Positions 11,115 to 58,891 of a DNA stretch of 64,000 bases are shown here, one piece after another. A program made the position numbers and the translations under genes. The notes beneath the pieces are model-generated. The model worked only from the letters and a program-made list of their open reading frames with translations, searched no databases and was not told the DNA's origin. The stretch comes from Shigella phage SGF2, in sequence record MN148435; one strand, 5' to 3'. Numbering within the stretch: position 1 is the stretch's first letter; each line of letters begins with the position of its first letter.

Positions 11115-11143
11115 AGCCGCCTTCGGGTGGCTTTTCTTGTTTT
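11115..11143 (+). terminator. intrinsic terminator (UUCG-loop hairpin)
   Basis: agccgcc-ttcg-ggtggct followed by tttcttgtttt. Confidence 0.55.
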
Positions 11144-11165
11144 AAGACCTATACAAGCTAGTGTG

Positions 11166-26617: not shown

Positions 26618-28273
26618 ATGCAACAGACAACTTACGCTCAGGTCAGAAGTCGTGATCCGAGAAATACTTTTTATGGTGTTAATCCGGGAGCGGCTTCGGC
26701 CTCTCCTTATATGGCTAGACCTACTCAGACAGCTGATGTTTCTATGTACCAACGTCCTGCTGTACCTTCATCTCTCGCAGGTCTTGTCTCTCAGGCAGAA
26801 GAAGATCAGAATGCTATGGTGAATCCGGGATTCCAGCAACGTCTTATGGAACAACAGAATCAAGGAACTCCAACAAGCCTTCAGGGTATTAATATTGGAG
26901 AGCCAGCTCCTGTAGCAGCTAATCCTAATTTATCCACTGATCAAGGTTTGCAGGATGCTGGACTTATGCCTAGTGACCCTCTTCCGGTAACACCTCCTAC
27001 TAAACCACTAGAAGCTGGTCCTATGGAGTTTACTCCTTCTCAGGTGGAACAGGCACAAGGTGTGATTAACACTCTTGCTCAAGGACAAGACACCGGTGAC
27101 GGAATGACTGCTGCTACTCGCACTAAAGATCAAGAGCGTGTTAACAATGATATCATGCAGGTTGCTAAAGCTAAAGACCCTTCAGAAGCTTGGAATAAAC
27201 TACAGAAAGAACCTTTCTATCAGAACTCCAGTTTCTATACAGGTTTGATGGGTGTAGGTCTTTCTATCATGTCAGGTAAGTCTCCTATCGAAGCGTTTCA
27301 GATTGGTCAGGGAATGGCTAATCAAGATGAGACTAAGAAGCAACTGGAAGCTAACCGTGATGCATTAGTTGAACAGGGTTTCTCTCAAGACTCTATTGCT
27401 GCTGCTATTGCAAGTGGTGATCCTTCTCTTCTGAAGATGAGAGCTAAAAATCCTCTTCAACAGGAAGCTCTGTATGCTGCTCGTGAAGAACGTCAGAATG
27501 CTGAGTGGGATAGACGTCAACAGATTCAAGAGCAGTCTATGCGTGAACGTGCTGAGGAAACTCGTCGTGCTGCTGAAAAGAGAACTGACATGAACTTTGA
27601 ACGTCAGAAAGAGTTGATTGGCTATCGTGATAAGGTTAAGGCTGAACGTGCTGAACAAGCTGCTCAGAGTTTTAACTTTAACCCGAAAGAAGTTCGTCTT
27701 GCTCAGAACACAGCTGAAGGTACAGTTGCTAAGCAGTGGGCGGAGAAAGGTGGTCTGTTTAACCAGTCCAACAAAGACTTGGATTTGGCTGACAAAGCAG
27801 TTAAAGATAAAGACTACCAGACAGCTCGTTCTGCTTACATGCAGGCTATCATGAACTCCGCAAGGGCTGAAATCGGTGCTACCCGTTCTCTTACTGAAGA
27901 AGACTTGGGACACTTCGCAGAAGACCCATCAATCTTCGTTCGTGTTGGCAACAAGTTTGCACTGAAATCTGGATGGCGTCCTACTGATGCTGCTCTTTCT
28001 TATGCTCGTAAGCAGGCTAATGTTGGTCACACCTCTGCAATGAAGGGTGTTGCTGATGCTAAGAAGGCTACTATCGAAGCATACATCGGTTCTGGTATGG
28101 ATAAGAAGAGAGCTACTGCATTGGTTAACCGTGCAATCCCTTCTGGTGGTTTCTATGACCCTCTAGGTGTTTTCTCTGAACAAGCAGAAGAAGCAGTTGG
28201 TGGTGCAGCAACCAATCCTAAGCTTAATGGTGCTTTATCAGCTGTCGAAGACACTAGCTGGTTTACTCAATAA
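26618..28273 (+). CDS. internal virion protein
   Basis: 551-aa ORF in ejection-protein block. Confidence 0.4.
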   Translation: MQQTTYAQVRSRDPRNTFYGVNPGAASASPYMARPTQTADVSMYQRPAVPSSLAGLVSQAEEDQNAMVNPGFQQRLMEQQNQGTPTSLQGINIGEPAPVAANPNLSTDQGLQDAGLMPSDPLPVTPPTKPLEAGPMEFTPSQVEQAQGVINTLAQGQDTGDGMTAATRTKDQERVNNDIMQVAKAKDPSEAWNKLQKEPFYQNSSFYTGLMGVGLSIMSGKSPIEAFQIGQGMANQDETKKQLEANRDALVEQGFSQDSIAAAIASGDPSLLKMRAKNPLQQEALYAAREERQNAEWDRRQQIQEQSMRERAEETRRAAEKRTDMNFERQKELIGYRDKVKAERAEQAAQSFNFNPKEVRLAQNTAEGTVAKQWAEKGGLFNQSNKDLDLADKAVKDKDYQTARSAYMQAIMNSARAEIGATRSLTEEDLGHFAEDPSIFVRVGNKFALKSGWRPTDAALSYARKQANVGHTSAMKGVADAKKATIEAYIGSGMDKKRATALVNRAIPSGGFYDPLGVFSEQAEEAVGGAATNPKLNGALSAVEDTSWFTQ

Positions 28274-28293
28274 GACCTAAGTCCTGCCTTCTA

Positions 28294-32771: not shown

Positions 32772-32809
32772 AGCCCTCAAGGAGAAATCCAAGAGGGCTT
32801 TATTTGTTT
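32772..32809. terminator. hairpin at convergence point of + and - transcription units
   Basis: agccctc-(14 nt loop)-gagggct followed by ttatttgttt. Confidence 0.35.
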
Positions 32810-37168: not shown

Positions 37169-37190
37169 AAAAAAGCCACCCGAAGGTGGC
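37169..37190 (-). terminator. intrinsic terminator (UUCG loop)
   Basis: on - strand gccacc-uucg-ggtggc followed by UUUUUU. Confidence 0.55.
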
Positions 37191-37212
37191 TAAGCTATAA
37201 CAAGGAGAGTTA

Positions 37213-37959
37213 TTAGAATGGGCTATCGTTGTCGTCTTCGTAAGTAGAAGCAGGCTCTTTATCAATCGTAGGGATTGAAGGAGTAGCTTCTTTCTGTTCT
37301 GTTTCAGAAGCACGAGTAATTTCACGACCAGCCAGAGGCATGTTCTTAGCGTCATTAGCTTGGGTAAGCAGGTTGCGCTGGAACGGGAACATCAGTTGAT
37401 AGGATGCTACGTTCTCATCGGTTTCCGCATACGGTTCGAAGAATACCAGAGGACTACGAGCTTCACCAACTGCTGCACGATATTTAGTTGGGATTGGAGA
37501 AATGGTCTTGATGGAGTTTTTAACTTCACCAGCTTTGTTAGTGTAAGAGTTAACCAGAATGTTAACAGGCTGACCTAACAGCACATCCTTAAACCAAGAC
37601 AGATCACCTTTCAGTGCTTGAATGCTTGGGTCAATCATCTTGCAGAGATCAAGGATACCAGAGTTCTTAGCTCGCGGGTTTACATCATAACTCTTGAACT
37701 GGCAAGCAGGACGTGGCTCTAATGCCTTACCATCGGAATCTTTACCAGTAGCATCAACACCAATTAGCTCGAAAGCCAAATCCATACGGAAAGCCGGATT
37801 CTTAGGGGTTACTGCTTTGGTCTTCGGGTCAATCCAAGGGTCACGATTGTGAACACCCAAACCTACTACACGAACGATACGTGCTTCGTATTCACCATCA
37901 GGGATTACATCGTAGTTGGATTTACGGGAAGCAGTTGCGATAGTTGGAATCATAGACAT
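37213..37959 (-). CDS. SSB-like single-stranded DNA-binding protein
   Basis: 248 aa with acidic C-terminal tail ending EDDNDSPF, like SSB DDDIPF tails. Confidence 0.4.
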   Translation of the reverse strand: MSMIPTIATASRKSNYDVIPDGEYEARIVRVVGLGVHNRDPWIDPKTKAVTPKNPAFRMDLAFELIGVDATGKDSDGKALEPRPACQFKSYDVNPRAKNSGILDLCKMIDPSIQALKGDLSWFKDVLLGQPVNILVNSYTNKAGEVKNSIKTISPIPTKYRAAVGEARSPLVFFEPYAETDENVASYQLMFPFQRNLLTQANDAKNMPLAGREITRASETEQKEATPSIPTIDKEPASTYEDDNDSPF

Positions 37960-38010
37960 ATTTTAACTTCCTTATTTAATTTGAAAGATTGTTGCTCTCT
38001 TTGAGCGGTT

Positions 38011-38027
38011 ATGTATAGTATACATTA
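38011..38027. promoter_or_regulatory. palindrome ATGTATAGTATACAT carrying TAATGTATA on - strand
   Basis: - strand 9-mer at 38027..38019, ~60 nt upstream of SSB-like gene start; + strand reads TTATGTATA. Confidence 0.4.
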
Positions 38028-38090
38028 CGCTTATACCGATAAGAGTACTATATAATATAAGTATCTTTGGTAGTAGATATAACACACTAG

Positions 38091-38099
38091 TAATGTATA
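38091..38099 (+). promoter_or_regulatory. TAATGTATA motif on + strand inside - strand gene block
   Basis: exact 9-mer; followed by ~280 nt lacking ATG-initiated ORFs. Confidence 0.3.
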
Positions 38100-38376
38100 T
38101 ATTGTATAGCTGATAAAGCTATTGCAGGCTTGTATATTGGGCAATTCACAGAATCCCTTGCAAGTACCGAAGGGCAGGAGCCACCTGCGAGATAAAAATA
38201 GAGAATTAAGGAATCCTTGATTTAGGTTGTAGGGACTCCTAGGGACTTTGATTCTCTATTTAAAAAGAATATTAATTACTTACTACCTAAATAATTAACT
38301 AACTTACTTAAACCAAATTCAATAAGAATAGATAAAAAGATTATTCCTAAGAAAGCTAAAAAGTATAGAATATAAG

Positions 38377-38559
38377 TTACCATTCAAGTAAACCTTTAAA
38401 GTTAGATTTTTCTACTATTCGCTGATAGTGAAGATTAGAATCAGCTTGTTTCTTTAACATCTCATTATGTTGATCTCTGATATAATCCCTATAAACCATA
38501 CGTTCTTTGAGTAACGAAATTTTCTTTCTTTCAGAGCTTAAATAGTACATCCTAGACAT
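38377..38559 (-). CDS. hypothetical small protein
   Basis: 60-aa ORF. Confidence 0.3.
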   Translation of the reverse strand: MSRMYYLSSERKKISLLKERMVYRDYIRDQHNEMLKKQADSNLHYQRIVEKSNFKGLLEW

Positions 38560-56781: not shown

Positions 56782-58812
56782 TTAACCTCTATTCAATGAA
56801 CATTTAGGAGAATTACAATAAACTTGATTCATAGAACCAAGCGTACAACTTTCAGCATCGCGCCACGGAATCTGCTTAAAACACTCTGAGCAGTAGCCGA
56901 GGGTTGACCACATGGCTTTGGTGAAGTCAGTGCTTCGGTTTCCGTCGAAGCTGACAACAGTTTTGCGGAGAGCTGTTCGTGATTCAGGAAACACACCTGC
57001 TTTCTCAGCAGGTTCCTCCTTTTTTGGCTTAGTTGAGATTGCAAAAATACTGTTGCTACGTTTCTCAACATAAGCATCAACAACATCCTCCAGAGTGATG
57101 CCTGTCTGTTTCGCTGAGGAAGGTAATACAGTCATACGACCAATCATATCTTCAGTTACACGTAAAGCAAATTCAGGACGACGGGCGTTTGTTGTATCTG
57201 TTGCTTTAATCCAGACATAACCATCTTTGATCGTAGCATTAGATACTTTCTTCTTTACATCTACAGCGCAGACTTTACAGATATCTTCACCACGAAGACG
57301 ACTAAGTTCATCATCGAACTCGTTCTCTGTTTTAACTTCACCGCAGATTTCACAAACACCAATAGGAGTTTCCTCCTCTTCTTCATCTTTAGGTTTAGTC
57401 AAACCTTCCAGACATTCAGGGTGCCAGTAGCACTGATATGCGAAGACTGCTTTAGGTGCATCCTTCCAATCAATGTGTTTGTCACAACCACCGCAATCAC
57501 CATGAGAGTGTGCTTCCCAGAATTTACGAGTGATAGTAACGCCATTCTTATTGACGAAACTATCATTCATGTCAAAAGGGATATCATCATCGAAGTCAGC
57601 GGTAGTAGACTCAGGCTCCTTTTTCTCCAGAGATGGGTCAACAAAACGACCTGCTGTGATCACTAAACGAACCATAGCATTAACTTCGGAGATGCAGGAT
57701 ACTGTCCCACGGTAAACAATTTTAGGGTCTTTCAGGGCATCCTGATAAGCCTTAATGTCTACGTTATGAACATCACCTTCGATATACTCTTGAGACTTCT
57801 CATCGTAGATATAACCAATCATCTTACCACGAGAAGGAACAGCACCAGCTGTTGCATAAGGAACAAACTCATGTGGTGTGATTTCCACAGTCATATCGCG
57901 GCGAATGTCAATGTTTCGATCGCTTGCGATTTTGTTTTGACTTACCACTGCGTTTCTTCGACGAACGTCTGCCGCTGTCACTCCCGGCTTCGTGTCGTAA
58001 GGATTGCTTGTACTGCTTTTTGAGGAACTTTGATAATTGCTTTGGCTGTAGTTGTTCGAGTAGTAATTGCCCCAACGATTGATTACCGTAAAAACCGGAA
58101 GCTCGTGGGCGACCTCTTCAACTAGAGTCATACTGTTGTTTGACATGTCAAAGATATACTCTGTACCAACTTTACATTCAAAGTGCTCATCAATACGGTT
58201 CTTGTGAGACTTAGAACGCTTCAGAATCCACATCAACATGTCTTCTTCAGAAGCACCAAACCAATCTCTGTTACAACGTGCGAGATGGAATGGACGCTCT
58301 TCGTTACGGATGATATGAAGACGGTTGTCAGAAGCATCATGCCAGATTAAGGTGAAAGCACCATCCAGCTTTTGAATAGTCTCTGCTGCACCAATAGTGT
58401 TAATAGAGTGGCAGATGTTCTCACTGTCTACCTCGAAGTTTTTGCTGTCAGGTAACAGATCTTGGTCCATCAAGGTTCCGTTATGAACCAGAGTGATGTT
58501 ACCATGTTGGAAAGGATGGGCGTTCTTGGCGTTAACTGCACCTTTCGTTGCATGACGGCTATGACCAACAATCCATGAAGGTGCTACAGTGTAAGCTGTT
58601 TCACCAGTGGTGTGCTTCTTGTACTCATCTTGAAGGATGAATGCGAAAGAAGGAAGGGCTTCTTTATAGGTGAAGACTTCCTTAGTGCTCTTACGCTGAC
58701 CAAAGATACCAGAGGAATGTTGTCCTCGGAACACTCCAGCATAAAAGAGTTGGTTGAATACGTCTAAATCAGTGCTTGACAGATTACCGCCAGCTAATAC
58801 GATGCCACAAAT
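56782..58812 (-). CDS. class-II (Ntn) glutamine amidotransferase domain protein with C-terminal Cys-rich zinc-ribbon region
   Basis: reading frame between stops begins K-I-CGIVLAGG...RGQHSSGIF...GHSRHATKGAVNAKNAHPF...HNG; track start is internal GTG 58734; only ATT 58812..58810 (AGGTGG 8 nt upstream) can place Cys at position 2. Confidence 0.55.
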   Translation of the reverse strand: MCGIVLAGGNLSSTDLDVFNQLFYAGVFRGQHSSGIFGQRKSTKEVFTYKEALPSFAFILQDEYKKHTTGETAYTVAPSWIVGHSRHATKGAVNAKNAHPFQHGNITLVHNGTLMDQDLLPDSKNFEVDSENICHSINTIGAAETIQKLDGAFTLIWHDASDNRLHIIRNEERPFHLARCNRDWFGASEEDMLMWILKRSKSHKNRIDEHFECKVGTEYIFDMSNNSMTLVEEVAHELPVFTVINRWGNYYSNNYSQSNYQSSSKSSTSNPYDTKPGVTAADVRRRNAVVSQNKIASDRNIDIRRDMTVEITPHEFVPYATAGAVPSRGKMIGYIYDEKSQEYIEGDVHNVDIKAYQDALKDPKIVYRGTVSCISEVNAMVRLVITAGRFVDPSLEKKEPESTTADFDDDIPFDMNDSFVNKNGVTITRKFWEAHSHGDCGGCDKHIDWKDAPKAVFAYQCYWHPECLEGLTKPKDEEEEETPIGVCEICGEVKTENEFDDELSRLRGEDICKVCAVDVKKKVSNATIKDGYVWIKATDTTNARRPEFALRVTEDMIGRMTVLPSSAKQTGITLEDVVDAYVEKRSNSIFAISTKPKKEEPAEKAGVFPESRTALRKTVVSFDGNRSTDFTKAMWSTLGYCSECFKQIPWRDAESCTLGSMNQVYCNSPKCSLNRG

Positions 58813-58891
58813 TTTCTAATCCACCTGAAGGGTAAACCCTTTCATCTAATTAACCTTTAAATTGTGCCCCTTTATCAGAGGCACCCATTGA

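Follow-up and report, generated by a model that had tools for sequence, protein, structure and literature searches.

A conserved plus-strand unit with a predicted P68-type gp36 promoter, back to back with P40 in phiEco32-like phages, probably produces a non-coding RNA

The genome of Shigella phage SGF2 (sequence record MN148435) was analysed in a stretch of 64,000 nucleotides (nt), hereafter the window, which belongs to a phiEco32-like coliphage (Kuravirus) with approximately 95% identity to phiEco32 itself. The locus under study corresponds, in phiEco32 coordinates, to the space separating gene 40 from genes 41/42. On its left lies the minus-strand gene for a homologue of gp40 (37213–37959), a protein resembling single-stranded DNA-binding proteins (SSBs), with its published promoter P40, and on its right lies the minus-strand gene for the small peptide gp41 (38276–38383). 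Between them, a promoter-like site on the plus strand (38067–38099) and a conserved block reaching to 38262 form the element described here, a candidate source of a non-coding RNA. A first-pass annotation, made from the letters alone, had described the interval as a gene-free region of 417 base pairs (bp) and the longest gap in the minus-strand block; the latter holds, while the size falls to 316 bp once the 35-codon open reading frame (ORF) of gp41 is counted. Approximately 97 phage records match a 1-kb stretch around the element at 80–99% identity, all of them phiEco32-like members of the subfamily Gordonclarkvirinae.

The sequence tAATGTAtA is the consensus recognized by gp36, a sigma factor that the phage encodes (PMC4331800, PMC8948821). 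Six gp36 promoters have been published, P6, P13, P26, P40, P58, and P68, each lying before the gene of the same number (PMC4331800; PMC8948821 Table S3). In the gp36 open complex on P68, solved by cryo-electron microscopy (cryo-EM), the motif is numbered -14A, -13A, -12T, and -11G, and the C-terminal domain of gp36 touches -37G and the T opposite -34A, mutation of which abolishes transcription (PMC12276001). The 9-mer TAATGTATA, which the first-pass annotation had noticed without recognizing it as the gp36 consensus or its minus-strand copy as the known P40, matches the published element. Five exact copies are present in the window, four of which are P13, P26, P40, and P58, and the fifth is the plus-strand copy at 38091–38099; P6 and P68 each differ from the 9-mer at one position. 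At a tolerance of one mismatch, it shows no enrichment in the window (19 matches vs 18.6 expected).

The plus-strand copy, which occupies positions -15 to -7 of the predicted promoter and is not among the six published ones, is preceded by the 14-nt word TTGGTAGTAGATAT at 38067–38080 (positions -39 to -26), which is identical to the -35 region of P68. This 14-mer has only two exact copies in the 64 kb, at 38067–38080 on the plus strand and 48912–48925 on the minus strand, and in both cases a copy of the motif follows after exactly 10 nt; the published P68 (48893–48925, minus strand) consists of TTGGTAGTAGATAT, 10 nt, and then AAATGTATA. On P68 numbering, the word covers both gp36-contacted bases, TTG(-37)GTA(-34). 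In the aligned sites, -34A is present at all seven, and -37G is common to P6, P68, and the plus-strand site. Because TTGGTAGTAGATAT spans the P68 contacts and an exact TAATGTATA follows at the same 10-nt spacing, the plus-strand site carries both recognition elements of a structurally characterized gp36 promoter and is a predicted promoter in its own right. The likeness to P68 extends to the type of -10 element, an A at the predicted start, and the conservation of the -35 word across genera at both promoters, the P68 word being retained in four diverse phages (ECBP2, EcK-vB, KBNP1711, and NC-B). The two differ in that P68 heads a middle-gene operon on the minus strand, whereas the plus-strand promoter points the opposite way, into ORF-free DNA; unlike P68, it lies outside the published list, and its activity is a prediction. 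As a side observation, the late promoters P13 and P26 (motifs at 11143–11151 and 28271–28279, plus strand) share TAAGACCTA at exactly -38 to -30, which differs from the TTGGTAGTAGATAT of P68 and the plus-strand promoter. This suggests that the -35 regions of gp36 promoters may be class-specific, with one type at P68 and the plus-strand site and another at the late promoters P13 and P26.

Conservation of the promoter and of the block behind it was counted in 28 distinct versions, from approximately 45 loci of Kuravirus, Suseptimavirus, and Nieuwekanaalvirus. All nine positions of the -10 element are invariant, as are 10 of the 14 positions of the -35 word. By contrast, none of the 10 positions of the spacer is invariant, and it occurs in 12 different sequences of constant length; the 11 nt upstream of the -35 word likewise contain no invariant position (0/11). 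The retention of both elements and of their spacing while the spacer and flanks vary is, at the sequence level, the footprint of a promoter under selection. More distant copies were retrieved from Logan and ENA contigs (L058 and L060–L063), in which gp40 is 70–82% identical. The -35 core TGGTAGT is retained in every version found, these distant relatives included, and the -10 element of the latter reads GAATGTATT, TAATGTATT, or TAATGAATA. The first-pass annotation had named a lack of conservation in related phages, together with the lack of a plus-strand transcript, as a refutation of its proposal; the unit is conserved across three genera as well as in the distant metagenomic relatives.

On P68 numbering, transcription would start 7 nt past the motif, at A 38106. 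This base is the first of a hairpin, H1 (AUAGCU-GAUAA-AGCUAU, 38106–38122, plus strand), and it is so in all 11 distinct versions. In a first set of 20 distinct sequences, two H1 pairs covary and a G-U wobble is found in seven sequences, with a covariation score of 0.063 (shuffles, 0.028) that none of 500 shuffles reached. With the distant copies added (11 versions), pairs 2–5 covary, that is, four of six (UA/GC/CG/UG, AU/CG, GC/GU/UA, and CG/UA/AU). The G-U and U-G wobbles pair only in the plus-strand RNA, and the H1 of phiEco32 folds only on this strand (-2.9 vs 0.0 kcal/mol on the minus strand). Since the covarying H1 begins at the same base in all versions, the predicted start at A 38106 is indirectly supported.

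H1 is followed by an invariant UGCA (38123–38126), which together with U 38122 of H1 makes up the invariant word TTGCA (UUGCA in the RNA), and then by an exchangeable cassette reaching to 38165 (alignments A3 and A4). Three unrelated cassette types, A, B, and C, occupy this slot among the relatives, each with a hairpin of its own. In type A, the one present here, the minimum-energy fold contains the helix CUUGUA/UGCAAG (38129–38134 with 38159–38164), in which a G-C pair is changed to A-U in L060; the type B hairpin shows a U-A to C-G change in ECBP2, and the type C hairpin differs by two compensatory pairs between L058 and L061. The unit is modular, because phages with one common H1 version (MN05 and SR02) carry different cassettes. 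A third kind of hairpin that covaries, H3 (GCAGG-AGCCA-CCUGC, 38174–38188), lies beyond the slot, with a compensatory change to GCUGG/CCAGC in L058. An alternative long-range stem predicted for type A, UUGCAGG with CCUGCGA, was rejected, as L058 compensates inside the local H3. It can also be observed that GAUAA recurs in the H1 loop (38112–38116), in the linker before the long 3′ hairpin H4 (38192–38196), and, as GAUAAG, in the type B and C cassette loops, which may reflect a shared recognition motif or chance.

From 38166 to 38262, the element consists of a nearly invariant core of 97 nt, 82 columns of which are invariant, comprising ACCGAAGGG, H3, the A-rich linker GAGAUAAAAAU, the long hairpin H4 (38197–38260), and UUUAAAA. 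The core differs from those of ECBP2, KBNP1711, SU7, and Bas88 by only 1–3 substitutions in approximately 95 nt, whereas the adjacent gp40 of the same phage pairs is 81–83% identical, and 61–65% at third codon positions. This conservation extends from the -35 word to the end of H4 (~38262) irrespective of the next gene, be it gp41/gp42 or a phosphoesterase; in at least six relatives (ECBP2, Paul, Bas88, TH43, NC-B, and XT18), the element is fully conserved without gp41, with the phosphoesterase gene in its place. The tandem AGGGACT repeat reported by the first-pass annotation is located inside H4 (38231–38237 and 38241–38247), and in one group of relatives both copies read AGGACU together. H4 has 15–16 pairs on the plus strand through G-U pairing and 11 on the minus strand, with predicted energies of -23.5 and -18.2 kcal/mol, respectively; for the whole fold, the values are -48.2 kcal/mol (z -2.55) on the plus strand and -39.5 (z -2.23) on the minus strand.

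H4 would also suit a terminator. On the minus strand it is placed 13–36 nt past the stop codon of the upstream gene and is followed by the invariant UAUUUUUAU; the U-tract of the plus strand is shorter, namely UAUUUAAAA in the window and UUUUAAAA in L061/L062. Its loop is far larger than those of canonical terminators, and it was not called by the terminator consensus scan. H4 is probably a two-way terminator that forms the 3′ end of the RNA and also stops the converging gp42–gp41 (or phosphoesterase) transcripts.

The plus strand lacks an ATG between 38100 and 38400, as had been remarked for the DNA following the exact 9-mer at 38091, and stop codons occur in every frame. In addition, the relatives differ within the block by 1- and 2-nt insertions or deletions that would shift the frame, and the reading as a small ORF was rejected. 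Thus, unlike the published gp36 promoters with their genes, the plus-strand promoter has no protein-coding gene downstream. The search for a known RNA family that had been proposed as a check matched none described: permissive scans of Rfam 15 with 2.5 kb, with the 191-nt element, and with the type B version returned nothing near thresholds, the best being a generic hairpin match to mir-3045 at 17.7 bits against a gathering threshold of 90. A role as a sponge for CsrA was considered and set aside, as four GGA motifs in 157 nt compare with approximately three expected by composition.

Of the neighbouring features, the minus-strand promoter P40 is already known. Its element, an exact TAATGTATA at 38019–38027, belongs to a published middle promoter and is invariant in the 15 phages of alignment A1, with which P40 and the palindrome were compared. 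The perfect inverted repeat ATGTATA-G-TATACAT (ATGTATAgTATACAT, 38011–38025) is present as described, with the exact 9-mer on the minus strand and a plus-strand near-copy with one mismatch (TTATGTATA, 38009–38017). As a feature, however, the palindromic promoter pair is unconserved, being lost in SU7, ECBP2, Bas88, TH43, and NC-B, and relatives of the Suseptimavirus genus have GGTATACTATATACATTA at this position. Because these relatives keep only the minus-strand promoter, the palindrome is probably lineage-specific and incidental to P40. The divergent hub envisaged in the first-pass annotation survives as a back-to-back promoter pair, in which the real partner of P40 is the promoter at 38067–38099 and not the near-copy in the palindrome.

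The P40 transcript is predicted, by the published numbering, to start at 38012, 7 nt past the motif, giving a leader of 53 nt (37960–38012) with the ribosome-binding site AAGGAAG (37967–37973). The leader also holds the stretch CCGCTCAAAGAGAGCAACAATCTT, which is invariant across genera in alignment A1 and forms a small GCUC/GAGC hairpin; it could serve as a translational operator for the SSB-like gene. The DNA between the two promoters (38028–38066), including the P40 -35 region at 38038–38051, is variable (alignment A1, columns 101–250). In some relatives, namely EcK-vB (L013, ~741–880), ES17 (L050), L003, and L031–L036, an insertion of approximately 140 nt lies between P40 and the plus-strand promoter, both of which are intact; it contains a CTACC-GAAA-GGTAG hairpin, and a 47-codon coding sequence is annotated there in ES17.

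The P40-driven gene encodes a gp40 homologue of 248 residues, which has no Pfam match and whose homologues are all annotated as hypothetical. The AlphaFold model (mean predicted local distance difference test score, pLDDT, 81.5) combines a core rich in beta structure with a disordered tail whose last residues are DDNDSPF. An oligonucleotide/oligosaccharide-binding (OB) fold and a disordered acidic C-terminal tail (...YEDDNDSPF) support an SSB-like protein at the level of the predicted fold, in line with the earlier description of the gene. NCBIfam NF046043 (“phage replication initiation protein, NGO0469 family”) was matched below threshold by all 28 gp40 homologues examined (best E-value 2.7e-11). 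The family name goes back to a weak similarity argument of 2007 and may mislead for gp40; a replication initiation protein was rejected as an identity, the weak annotation being outweighed by the predicted OB fold. Directly past gp40 is a terminator-like hairpin, AGCCACCTTCGGGTGGCT, followed by TTTTTT (37174–37191, minus strand; -12.7 kcal/mol predicted), which is the only convincing match of the terminator consensus scan. Given P40 in front and this hairpin behind, gp40 likely forms a one-gene transcription unit.

On the other side, gp41 (annotated in phiEco32 and matching phrog_24970) is a hydrophobic peptide of 35 residues, MVTYILYFLAFLGIIFLSILIEFGLSKLVNYLGSK, which looks like a single membrane-spanning helix. 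Its gene runs towards H4, with 13 nt left between the two, and the convergence of gp41 and the RNA on a shared hairpin resembles a type I toxin arrangement. The cassette type of the RNA element is not correlated with the presence of gp41.

Phage 7-11 has only a 103-nt spacer holding P48, in which the divergent element was not found. In three contigs of more distant relatives (L007, L008, and L009; 82–90 kb, gp40 67–70% identical), only a spacer of approximately 145 nt is present upstream of the gp40 homologue, and it contains a different block (~2370–2440), ATAATGGATAAAGCATATAGCTTAGCTTAGCTTTGATATGCTAGCTTTGCTAGATGCTTCC, which hardly varies among the three. A pattern scan of IMG/VR for the core returned phiEco32-like contigs and three chance matches, nothing else, and the element has no match in 5,426 Escherichia coli genomes. 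A search of the window for transfer RNA and transfer-messenger RNA found none. A scan with the sigma-70 promoter consensus gave fewer promoter-like matches than chance. Apart from this locus, the second-longest stretch without an ORF in the minus-strand block is found at 58743–58891 (149 nt).

Taken together, it is likely that 38067–38262 is a self-contained plus-strand unit, back to back with P40, that makes a non-coding RNA of approximately 155–160 nt. The earlier suggestion of a non-coding RNA arising from the plus-strand motif is very probably right, as judged by how the promoter is built, by conservation that spans genera, and by hairpins that covary. In the proposed sequence of events, host RNA polymerase carrying gp36 would read the P68-type promoter (TTGGTAGTAGATAT, 10 nt, TAATGTATA) from A 38106, with expression predicted in the middle phase of infection and possibly boosted by gp79, as at P68. 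The product would carry, in order, H1, UUGCA, the exchangeable cassette, the GCAGG/CCUGC hairpin, the A-rich linker, and the long 3′ hairpin H4. The hairpin at the first base, H1, would protect the RNA against 5′-end-dependent decay. As to function, the preferred reading is a stable middle-phase regulatory RNA. It is fully complementary to any minus-strand transcript that reads through into gp40 from the upstream operon, and the cassette may act as its specificity domain.

A comparable case is the OOP RNA of phage lambda, a 77-nt transcript that is made by the sigma-70 form of RNA polymerase and whose template overlaps cII at the 3′ end of the coding sequence. Historically OOP was taken for a possible replication primer, but it later proved to regulate by an antisense mechanism. 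Like OOP, the predicted RNA would be short and structured, with its own promoter, running counter to the surrounding operon in the replication region and ending in a hairpin. It differs in being about twice as long, in its predicted dependence on a phage sigma factor, in having an exchangeable internal cassette, and, should H4 be its 3′ end, in leaving 13 nt between itself and the converging coding sequence.

Several points weigh against this interpretation. Promoter activity is predicted from sequence, and the exact 5′ and 3′ ends and the function of the RNA are inferred. In the metagenomic subclade L061–L063 (gp40 ~70% identical), the -10 element is TAATGAATA and lies 1 nt closer to the -35 word, which may represent a drift in sigma specificity or a weaker promoter; P40 in these contigs retains TAATGTATT. 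Two single changes, a U to C in Bas88 and a C.A in ECBP2, can be paired on the minus strand only. The 3′ end is the weakest point of the reconstruction: with the better U-tract on the minus strand, the plus-strand RNA may continue into antisense of gp41/gp42, making its length uncertain. As the core is mostly invariant, covariation offers no test of H4, and such invariance would also fit a site acting at the DNA level. With respect to trans targets, a short-query Basic Local Alignment Search Tool (BLAST) comparison of the RNA with the window gave matches of at most 12 nt, at chance level, and the best duplex energy against 216 translation-initiation regions (-41.9 kcal/mol) lies within the shuffled range (-38.6 ± 3.7). 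Finally, the plus-strand promoter, its -35 identity with P68, and the RNA product are undescribed in the searchable literature, a search that did not extend to the primary transcription study (Pavlova 2012), which may have tested and rejected the site or already noted it. What is already known is P40 and the motif; what seems new is the plus-strand promoter with its P68-type -35 region and the predicted RNA.

The main rival, which is unlikely, is a transcription-activated origin of the T7 type, in which the transcript or an R-loop would prime synthesis or open the duplex for a T7-like replisome without a dedicated initiator; a replication origin had also been offered in the first-pass annotation. 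In T7, the primary origin is made up of two phage promoters (1.1A/1.1B) with an AT-rich stretch behind them. Similarly, a phage-specific promoter with no gene to serve leads here into non-coding and then AT-rich DNA, the G+C content being 22–30% from 38262 to 38500, downstream of H4. The element is also situated within the replication module, adjoining the SSB-like gp40, with DNA polymerase gp53, exonuclease subunit gp74, gp4-like primase/helicase gp75, thioredoxin, and ligase nearby and no recognizable initiator protein annotated, and the genome resembles that of T7 in its gp4-like primase/helicase, thioredoxin-associated polymerase, and gp2.5-like SSB. Moreover, the conservation of the core is stronger than a simple small RNA usually needs. 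Yet there are no iterons beyond one two-copy repeat, and the AT-rich stretch past H4 is unconserved in sequence, being simply gp41 coding sequence in many phages. In T7, a single-subunit RNA polymerase of the phage itself is used and conserved structure is not required of the origin transcripts, whereas approximately 155 nt of structured, highly conserved sequence follow the promoter here, and the likeness is one of sequence arrangement. The covarying first-base hairpin favours a stable RNA over a short-lived primer, and the replication initiation label of gp40 carries little weight given its weak 2007 origin and the SSB-like fold. Cumulative GC skew shows nothing at 38.1 kb, in a test that is uninformative on an origin there, as the coding strand dominates the skew and the maximum at 32797 only marks the coding-strand switch.

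Less probable still is that the selected element belongs to the minus strand, as the terminator or 3′ end of the gp42–gp41 (or phosphoesterase) operon that insulates P40, with the RNA itself functionless and the plus-strand promoter merely supplying converging polymerases that reinforce the barrier. A two-way terminator is classically built of an A-tract, a stem, and a U-tract, and in favour of this reading H4 follows whichever stop codon lies upstream on the minus strand at 13–36 nt, with the invariant UAUUUUUAU behind it. However, 97 invariant bases, with a 44-nt interior among them, are more than a terminator requires, and it is on the plus strand that H4 has its longer and more stable stem. 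Furthermore, H1, the cassette hairpins, and H3 covary with wobbles that fit the plus strand. On the minus strand they are located past the H4 terminator and would be transcribed by read-through only, so that it is difficult to account for their covariation without a plus-strand RNA. A type I toxin–antitoxin-like pair, with gp41 as the toxin and the converging RNA as the antitoxin, would recall par (Fst/RNA II) of pAD1 in its short hydrophobic peptide, apparently a single membrane-spanning helix, and in the convergence of a small RNA on a shared two-way terminator hairpin, but is highly improbable, as the RNA element persists in the six relatives without gp41, its cassette type does not follow gp41, an RNA with its end at H4 would stay clear of the gp41 coding sequence, and no repeat-based complementarity to the gp41 5′ region was seen.

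The element could also be a modular small RNA that is retargeted by cassettes A, B, and C, with related phages swapping specificity through recombination at the invariant UUGCA and ACCGAAGGG joints. phiEco32 is a reference system for a phage sigma factor that redirects host RNA polymerase, and, if the prediction is true, the plus-strand site would be a seventh gp36 promoter, of the P68 type and without a gene, adding a non-coding output to the regulatory programme. The 14-nt word it shares with P68 would provide comparative support for the -35 contacts seen by cryo-EM. In this group of phages, now widely isolated for therapy, no other non-coding sequence close to the replication genes is as conserved as that of the predicted RNA.

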